DNA from: Escherichia coli
Lineage (GTDB): Bacteria; Pseudomonadota; Gammaproteobacteria; Enterobacterales; Enterobacteriaceae
DNA: 64,000 bases
Assembly: GCF_016026235.1 (NCBI RefSeq)
Contig: NZ_CP065613.1
Reading direction: 5' to 3' (one strand)
Below, one piece after another: positions 10,405 to 11,107 of the stretch. The translations under genes and the position numbers were made by a program. The notes beneath the pieces were generated by a model. That model saw nothing but the letters and a program-made list of their open reading frames with translations, was not told where the DNA came from and made no database searches. Every line of letters starts with the position of its first letter. Position 1 is the first letter of the stretch.

Positions 10405-10431
10405 GGGCACCAGAAATGGTGCCTTTTTTAT
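10405..10431 (+). terminator. Rho-independent terminator after J
   Basis: GGGCACC-AGAAAT-GGTGCC followed by TTTTTTATT. Confidence 0.6.
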
Positions 10432-10453
10432 TGCAGAAAAGCGAGAGGTAATT

Positions 10454-11053
10454 ATGCGTAAACTTTATGCCGCCATTTTGTCCGCAGCCATTTGTCTGGC
10501 CGTATCCGGTGCGCCTGCATGGGCATCTGAACATCAGTCCACGCTGAGCGCGGGGTATCTTCATGCCTCGACGAACGTTCCCGGCAGCGATGATCTTAAC
10601 GGGATTAACGTGAAATACCGTTATGAGTTTACGGACACACTGGGGCTGGTGACGTCATTCAGCTATGCAGGAGACAAGAATCGCCAGCTTACCCGTTACA
10701 GCGATACCCGCTGGCATGAAGATTCCGTGCGTAACCGCTGGTTCAGCGTGATGGCGGGGCCGTCTGTGCGCGTGAATGAATGGTTCAGCGCGTATGCGAT
10801 GGCGGGCGTGGCTTACAGCCGTGTGTCGACCTTCTCCGGGGATTATCTCCGCGTAACTGACAACAAGGGGAAAACGCACGATGTGCTGACCGGGAGTGAT
10901 GACAACCGCCACAGCAACACGTCTCTGGCGTGGGGGGCTGGCGTGCAGTTTAACCCGACCGAATCCGTGGCCATTGACCTTGCTTATGAAGGTTCCGGCA
11001 GTGGCGACTGGCGCACTGACGGTTTCATCGTGGGTGTCGGTTATAAGTTCTGA
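10454..11053 (+). CDS. lom: Lom-like outer membrane protein (Ail/Lom/PagC/OmpX family 8-strand beta-barrel), phage moron
   Basis: Signal peptide [24 protein letters not shown], alternating aromatic beta-strand pattern, C-terminal ...GVGYKF; position between J and stf as in lambda. Confidence 0.85.
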
Positions 11054-11079
11054 TTAGCCAGGTAACACAGTGTTATGAC

Positions 11080-11107
11080 AGCCCGCTGGTTCAGGCGGGC
11101 TTTTTGT
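11080..11107 (+). terminator. Rho-independent terminator after lom
   Basis: AGCCCGC-TGGTTCAG-GCGGGCT followed by TTTTTGT. Confidence 0.6.

Follow-up and report, generated by a model that had tools for sequence, protein, structure and literature searches.

A lom gene between two terminator-like hairpins in a lambda-like prophage of Escherichia coli: an accessory cassette probably read from the phage late operon

The lom gene is a textbook accessory gene of lambda, and the copy considered here lies between genes J and stf in a 64,000-nucleotide stretch of Escherichia coli DNA (contig NZ_CP065613.1), which we call the window. An earlier note on this DNA described the gene as a self-contained moron, independently transcribed in the lysogen from its own promoter and bounded by two terminators. 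This raises the question of what lom actually brings with it: is it equipped for transcription on its own, or is it read as a passenger of the late operon? Near-identical phages already carry annotations for the gene, for its place between J and stf and for the two terminators that flank it, and the feature is in this sense known; what our analysis adds as a useful refinement is the exact boundary of the cassette, and with it the finding that lom is accompanied by a ribosome-binding site and a terminator of its own, but by no promoter.

The lom ORF (10454-11053, + strand; assigned from Pfam, PDB and the ORF list) is intact and encodes an outer-membrane beta-barrel protein of 199 residues. The Pfam Ail_Lom profile (PF06316, curated cut-off 23 bits) spans the whole of it, with residues 1-199 aligned to all 199 profile positions, at 400.3 bits and E = 1.9e-120; a second match is to a general outer-membrane beta-barrel profile (PF13505). 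In the PDB, Lom matches lambda Lom (9wso, 2e-49), OmpX (7e-19) and Ail (2e-17), so that its earlier assignment to the Lom/Ail/PagC family is borne out. The alignments to OmpX and Ail, both mature proteins, start at Lom residues 25-29, in agreement with the end of a signal peptide which we predict, reading the translation by eye, at residues 1-24 (...APAWA, followed by SE). The C-terminus, ...VGYKF, read in the same way, has the aromatic last residue of outer-membrane beta-barrels, and an eight-stranded barrel fold is very likely from the sequence. Lom thus resembles the Ail, OmpX, PagC and Rck proteins in its full-length family match, signal peptide, C-terminal ...GYKF and predicted barrel; it differs from them in being phage-borne, within a late operon, and by analogy its role in adhesion, serum resistance or anti-adsorption is only putative here. 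We asked whether the lambda Lom entry 9wso holds a complex with J, and found no match of J to it.

Upstream of lom lies J (6887-10384, + strand), a tail tip attachment and host specificity protein of 1165 residues with six J-specific Pfam domains, including Ig_J, Phage-tail_3, FNIII-A_GpJ, Phage_Tail_Tip and Ig_GpJ_C, which is annotated as gpJ in a 98.4% identical E. coli genome. Downstream is stf (11117-12529, + strand), which encodes a side tail fibre of 470 residues (Pfam phage_tail_N, 2e-48). The order J-lom-stf is the classical one of lambda. The description of the late operon as otherwise tightly coupled holds roughly, but the gap between I and J is 60 nt, and the gap (716-757) that follows the window's first ORF (30-716) has a hairpin in it; from its position we take that ORF to encode the major tail protein V. 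That hairpin (736-753, in a gap of 40 nt) is a strong one, with seven pairs, all G-C, and a T-run; counting it, the late operon contains at least four terminator-like hairpins.

Two of these flank lom. Hairpin 1 (10403-10432, + strand; found by terminator scan, folding and conservation) has a ten-pair stem (10403-10412 with 10417-10426), a GAAA loop and then TTTTTTATT to 10432. Its folding energy of -15.6 kcal/mol (z = -4.4) was equalled by none of 200 dinucleotide shuffles. Among 13 distinct variants, two stem pairs are altered on both sides (G-C to or from A-U, C-G to or from U-A), and 90.8% of cells are paired, a figure that drops to 35-62% on sliding the 3′ partners. Hairpin 2 (11080-11105, + strand; same three lines of evidence), which is lom's own terminator, has an eight-pair stem (11080-11087 with 11094-11101) followed by TTTTT to 11105, and also folds at -15.6 kcal/mol (z = -2.3 against dinucleotide shuffles). 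Across 11 variants 100% of cells are paired, and each of the three substitutions in the stem is a transition that yields a G.U pair. In the window itself, where a stem C is replaced by T (11087), hairpin 2 is slightly weakened by the resulting G.U pair and by a run of five T against six in most relatives; the stronger majority sequence is common to 55 related loci.

Counts of terminator-like matches do not single these sites out: 2 were found in 3 kb against 3.2 expected by shuffling, and 23 in 17 kb against 14.8 +/- 4.0, a modest excess. The quality and placement of the hairpins tell more than this raw count, for the top four + strand hairpins of positions 1-17000 are all intergenic, standing after the first ORF, J, lom and the tfa-like gene. 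The terminator scan did not flag the minus strand at the site of either hairpin 1 or hairpin 2. With their G+C-rich stems, short loops and 3′ T-runs, and with stems kept across relatives, both hairpins are confirmed by sequence to fit the intrinsic terminator form, and lom is, as had been claimed, flanked by two of them (10403-10432 and 11080-11105). Both sites are already labelled as terminators in GenBank, in the entries for phages 434, Ayreon and mEp460.

Do both hairpins belong to lom? We searched with a synthetic query in which the end of J was joined to the start of stf with lom excised, and this matched lambda-like phages in which J and stf are about 60 nt apart. In three of these (ev207, PhiR11_1_star and 1H12) the J stop is followed by ...GGGCGCC-AGAAAT-GGCGCC-TTTTTTATT and then by TGTGGAGTGAGTATG, the start of stf; that is, the ribosome-binding site and start of stf come directly after hairpin 1, the junction reading hairpin 1, TTTTTTATT, then TGTGGAGTGA(G/A)TATG with the start codon of stf. 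In the reverse search, lom-less phages aligned to the window over 10385-10432 only. Together with Lambda_2E9, ev203, ev058, 4A7 and PhiR47_2, these three phages either join J directly to stf or have only hairpin 1 in common with the window here. As lom-less phages also carry it, hairpin 1 belongs to J and not to lom; and from their junctions, and from the end of homology at 10432, the added DNA runs from about 10433 to 11104 (+ strand), a cassette of about 672 bp whose boundaries are ambiguous by 1-2 T. Among 5426 complete E. coli genomes, the left junction of lom is found in 4288 and the lom-less junction in 1173.

From 5′ to 3′ the cassette consists of a leader of 21 nt, which includes a Shine-Dalgarno sequence, then the lom ORF, a 3′UTR, and hairpin 2 with its T-run. 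The leader (10433-10453, + strand) is identical in 12 of 14 distinct upstream sequences; it differs in lambda and in the locus L039, which is disrupted by an insertion sequence. Its Shine-Dalgarno sequence, GAGAGGT (10443-10449), ends 4 nt before the lom ATG and pairs with the anti-Shine-Dalgarno at -7.1 kcal/mol. The "strong" ribosome-binding site of the earlier note is therefore a good one, but no better than those of L (-7.2), J (-6.8) and I (-9.3). At the other end, the stf ribosome-binding site GTGGGGTGA lies directly 3′ of hairpin 2, and the stf ATG (11117) is 11 nt past its T-run. The 3′UTR contains a perfect palindrome (TAACAC-A-GTGTTA, 11063-11075, either strand; read from the sequence), which lambda and those other lom allele classes that have the same 3′UTR also keep, and which could be a protein-binding site or part of the stem of a small RNA. 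An Rfam search of 9800-11800 at E <= 1 gave two chance-level matches only. The small RNA 24B_1, which lies 3′ of lom in phage 24B, comes from a different, 428-bp lom-downstream region in a short-tailed phage (PMC4426718).

The proposed lom promoter had been placed at 10430-10453, an interval of 24 nt that includes the Shine-Dalgarno sequence. A sigma-70 promoter takes up about 29 nt (two hexamers and their spacer), with about 7 nt more to the start site. The interval is thus too short to hold a -35 element, a 17-nt spacer, a -10 element and a leader; and, since the added DNA starts only 21 nt before the lom ATG, there is no room for a promoter within the cassette either. A consensus scan of the + strand from 9500 to 12500 found no promoter site, and a weight-matrix scan from the J stop to the lom ATG (approximate frequencies after Hawley & McClure, calibrated on all 128,000 window positions) found no sigma-70-like site, both being methods which miss activator-dependent, alternative-sigma and weak promoters. 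Several elements considered by eye were also rejected: TATAAG (10400), AATTAT (10450), the conserved TTATAACCC, and TTGCAG/TTGACT 3′ of the T-run. The grounds were a missing partner hexamer, wrong spacing, lack of conservation, or a predicted start lying within the ORF or ahead of the terminator. Half sites resembling a PhoP box, 5′ of hairpin 1, are weak and unconserved.

A self-contained moron, transcribed independently in the lysogen from its own sigma-70 promoter at 10430-10453, is hence very improbable in our estimation. It is true that lambda lom has been described as moron-encoded and prophage-expressed (PMC3594210, PMC7067206), and that the window lom does have its own Shine-Dalgarno sequence and terminator; against this stand the shortness of the interval, the empty scans, the start of the added DNA just 21 nt before the ATG, and a base composition that is not deviant. 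G+C content is 56.5% for lom, 55.8% for J and 54.7% for stf (64.0, 65.6 and 52.2% at third codon positions, respectively), and no deviation of lom from J and stf marks a foreign origin. Nor is lom self-contained on its 5′ side, because the sequence upstream of 10433, including hairpin 1, is present in lom-less phages also, and any promoter in that common sequence would not be lom's own.

Morons typically have a promoter within the added DNA and a deviant G+C content (Juhala et al. 2000, reviewed in PMC3594210). The cassette of the window resembles the morons of HK97 and HK022 in being extra DNA between otherwise adjacent genes, with a single accessory gene and its own intrinsic terminator, whose product acts on the host cell surface; it differs from them in having neither an internal promoter nor a deviant G+C content. 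The term moron is thus apt in part, for optional extra DNA with its own Shine-Dalgarno sequence and terminator, but not for a promoter or a base composition of its own, and in silico the cassette of the window has no promoter by which it would qualify in the stricter sense. With no promoter in the cassette, to label every copy a "lysogen-expressed virulence moron" goes beyond the sequence evidence. This correction concerns some 13,000 occurrences of the lom left junction in complete E. coli genomes; and for a Shigella/EIEC-type prophage with ipaH, as this one probably is, production of Lom in the lysogen bears upon claims that it adds to virulence.

In lambda, the polymerase that transcribes the late operon from pR′ is modified by Q and ignores terminators. 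By analogy, the reading that we favour, and which we consider probable though well short of certain, is that lom is a promoterless, terminator-bounded cassette of the late operon, read by Q-antiterminated read-through. The cassette lies directly 3′ of the resident J terminator with its T-run, and directly 5′ of the ribosome-binding site of stf. During lytic growth, Q-modified polymerase from pR′ would pass both terminators, as in lambda, so that lom would be co-transcribed with J and stf. In the repressed prophage the two terminators may act as insulators: hairpin 1 would halt unmodified polymerase that has passed through J; hairpin 2 would keep any lom transcript out of stf. Lysogenic expression of lom, if any, would then start in the 3′ end of J or the hairpin 1 region, which is common to lom-less phages, and would probably be weak. 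For both terminator activity and Q read-through at this locus, our case is built from the sequence and from the biology of lambda.

The published accounts of lom expression (the function and expression literature refers to lambda lom) bear upon this in both directions. On the one hand, lambda lom is reported to be expressed from the repressed prophage (PMC7067206, PMC1151598, PMC3594210, PMC12366544) and is treated as a moron-type, prophage-expressed gene (PMC3594210, PMC7067206), so that some promoter presumably exists in at least some phages. On the other, expression is said to rise strongly late in infection or the lytic cycle, as relayed by two papers that cite the ribosome profiling of Liu et al. 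2013 (PMC12366544, PMC9836094); one account has lom expression low in lysogens but high at late times, with prophage levels too low to block lambda-vir (PMC12366544); and a microarray study, which comments on how little is known of a lom promoter, could detect no lom in the lysogen (PMC2147009). In the unrelated context of phage 24B, lom expression was equal in lysogens and induced cells (PMC3342100, PMC4651098). The literature that we searched yielded no mapped lom promoter or transcription start.

The main rival to our reading is that a non-canonical promoter outside the cassette, active in the lysogen, gives low constitutive production of Lom. Such a promoter could either: lie in the 3′ coding part of J, with partial read-through of hairpin 1; or overlap hairpin 1 and its T-run and need the help of an activator or of an alternative sigma factor. 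Within J and 5′ of hairpin 1 there is indeed a promoter-like sequence (TTGATA-16-TGgTAGCGT, 10248-10275), which is the best weight-matrix site near lom, at the 99.99th percentile of window positions; its -10 element, however, is poor (3/6), and its conservation is uninformative because it lies within coding sequence. A transcript from this or any other start in J would meet a ten-pair hairpin and a run of six T before it reached lom. The reported lysogenic expression of lambda lom (PMC1151598, PMC7067206, PMC12366544) speaks for a promoter of this kind, but the 3′ end of J differs in lambda, and a promoter located there would therefore not be common to the two phages. The T-run, an ATT and the A-rich leader, which are kept between the lambda-type and window-type upstream regions, also speak for a promoter outside the cassette. 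The same upstream sequence would moreover drive stf in lom-less phages, for which there is no evidence. We regard a promoter outside the cassette as unlikely on balance, and retain read-through from the late operon as our preferred reading.

Could the hairpins serve another purpose than termination? If Q-modified polymerase is expected to ignore them, and yet selection keeps their stems, they may mainly be stabilisers of RNA 3′ ends or barriers to processing, which set the relative levels of J, lom and stf message within the late transcript. The similar hairpin after the first ORF of the window would fit such a role. Both hairpins, however, have full terminator anatomy, including a T-run that would be superfluous in a pure stabiliser, and the two roles are not mutually exclusive; as the main function of the hairpins we find stabilisation improbable. 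If they terminate, as we prefer to think, a more speculative extension is that the terminators keep lom nearly silent in the lysogen, and that lom is primarily a lytic-cycle gene, a promoterless cassette of the late operon and not a moron for lysogenic conversion. Lom may, for example, coat dying or neighbouring cells and so spare progeny phage unproductive adsorption, and an anti-adsorption or exclusion role for lom has been hinted at (PMC12366544). We hold this extension to be doubtful.

The layout of the window is not peculiar to it. Phages 434 (OL657226), Perceval (OV696612), mEp460 (NC_019716) and Ayreon (MF807953) are 95-98% identical to it in nucleotide sequence over 10300-11200 and show the same order: J stop, hairpin and T-run, 21-nt leader, lom of 199 codons, 3′UTR, hairpin and T-run, stf. 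For lom, the match to the region in 434, Perceval and mEp460 is at 97-98% of nucleotides. The window differs from 434 and its relatives in hairpin 2, where it has G.U for G-C and five T for six; in the body of its stf, which is of a rarer type (found in 1 of 80 IMG/VR loci); and in the ipaH gene that its prophage carries past the fibre genes. The comparison with lambda lom which the earlier note had proposed shows that gene in the same place between J and stf, and there too each flank has a hairpin followed by a T-run. In lambda (NC_001416, lom at 18965/18986-19585) the last 20 or so codons, the 3′UTR, terminator 2 and the start of stf are 91% identical to the window. The proteins as a whole, by contrast, share 46% amino acid identity, the C-terminus of J differs, and the upstream hairpin of lambda is unlike hairpin 1 in sequence (CGTCCG-GGAA-CGGGCG, then TTTTATT).

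Comparison across prophages suggests how this variation may arise. In 80 IMG/VR loci with window-type lom, the sequence from the leader through terminator 2 is 94-100% identical to the window, while identity falls to as little as 55-65% in the last 400 nt of J, and to about 60-66% in the body of stf. By these comparisons the lom cassette behaves as a mosaic module. Window-type lom occurs behind four different J C-terminal types; the lom allele is thus not strictly tied to the receptor-binding type of J, as receptor-matched exclusion would suppose, in a sample biased to best matches. There are at least three lom allele classes, the third being about 65% identical to lambda Lom, and all three have the same layout of hairpin, T-run and short leader. 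In most members of these classes the last 20 or so codons, the 3′UTR and terminator 2 are nearly identical. A conserved 3′ end with a divergent body suggests either: that alleles are exchanged via conserved flanks; or that diversifying selection acts on the surface loops of the protein. A more doubtful possibility is that intrinsic terminators are the preferred joints for the exchange of accessory cassettes and of lom alleles among lambdoid phages. In the loci L074 (about 2600-2750) and L134-L139, the usual 3′UTR and terminator give way to a different lom-stf spacer, about 150 nt long, which contains extended -10-like sequences (TGGTATAAT or TGTTATGAT) directed into stf.

Further features were seen in the surroundings of the cassette. 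The window stf (11117-13103 region) is short, its body being matched by a single one of the 80 related IMG/VR loci (L008), and an overlapping DUF4376 gene lies 3′ of it instead of a lambda-type tfa. Convergent with the tail-fibre genes is an ORF of 587 codons (13283-15046, - strand), which is annotated in 98%-identical E. coli genomes as IpaH, a type III secretion effector E3 ubiquitin ligase; a strong nine-pair hairpin (13219-13240) lies between it and the tfa-like gene. In E. coli FDAARGOS_943 the ipaH end of the prophage abuts ybhB-bioA, the classical lambda attachment site, so that the window probably derives from a genome of the Shigella/EIEC type. Related prophages contain IS66-family elements (L167, 231-2816; L039, about 1-1985): in FDAARGOS_943 one lies among the tail genes, and in L039 one ends 18 nt before the lom ATG, in place of J and hairpin 1.
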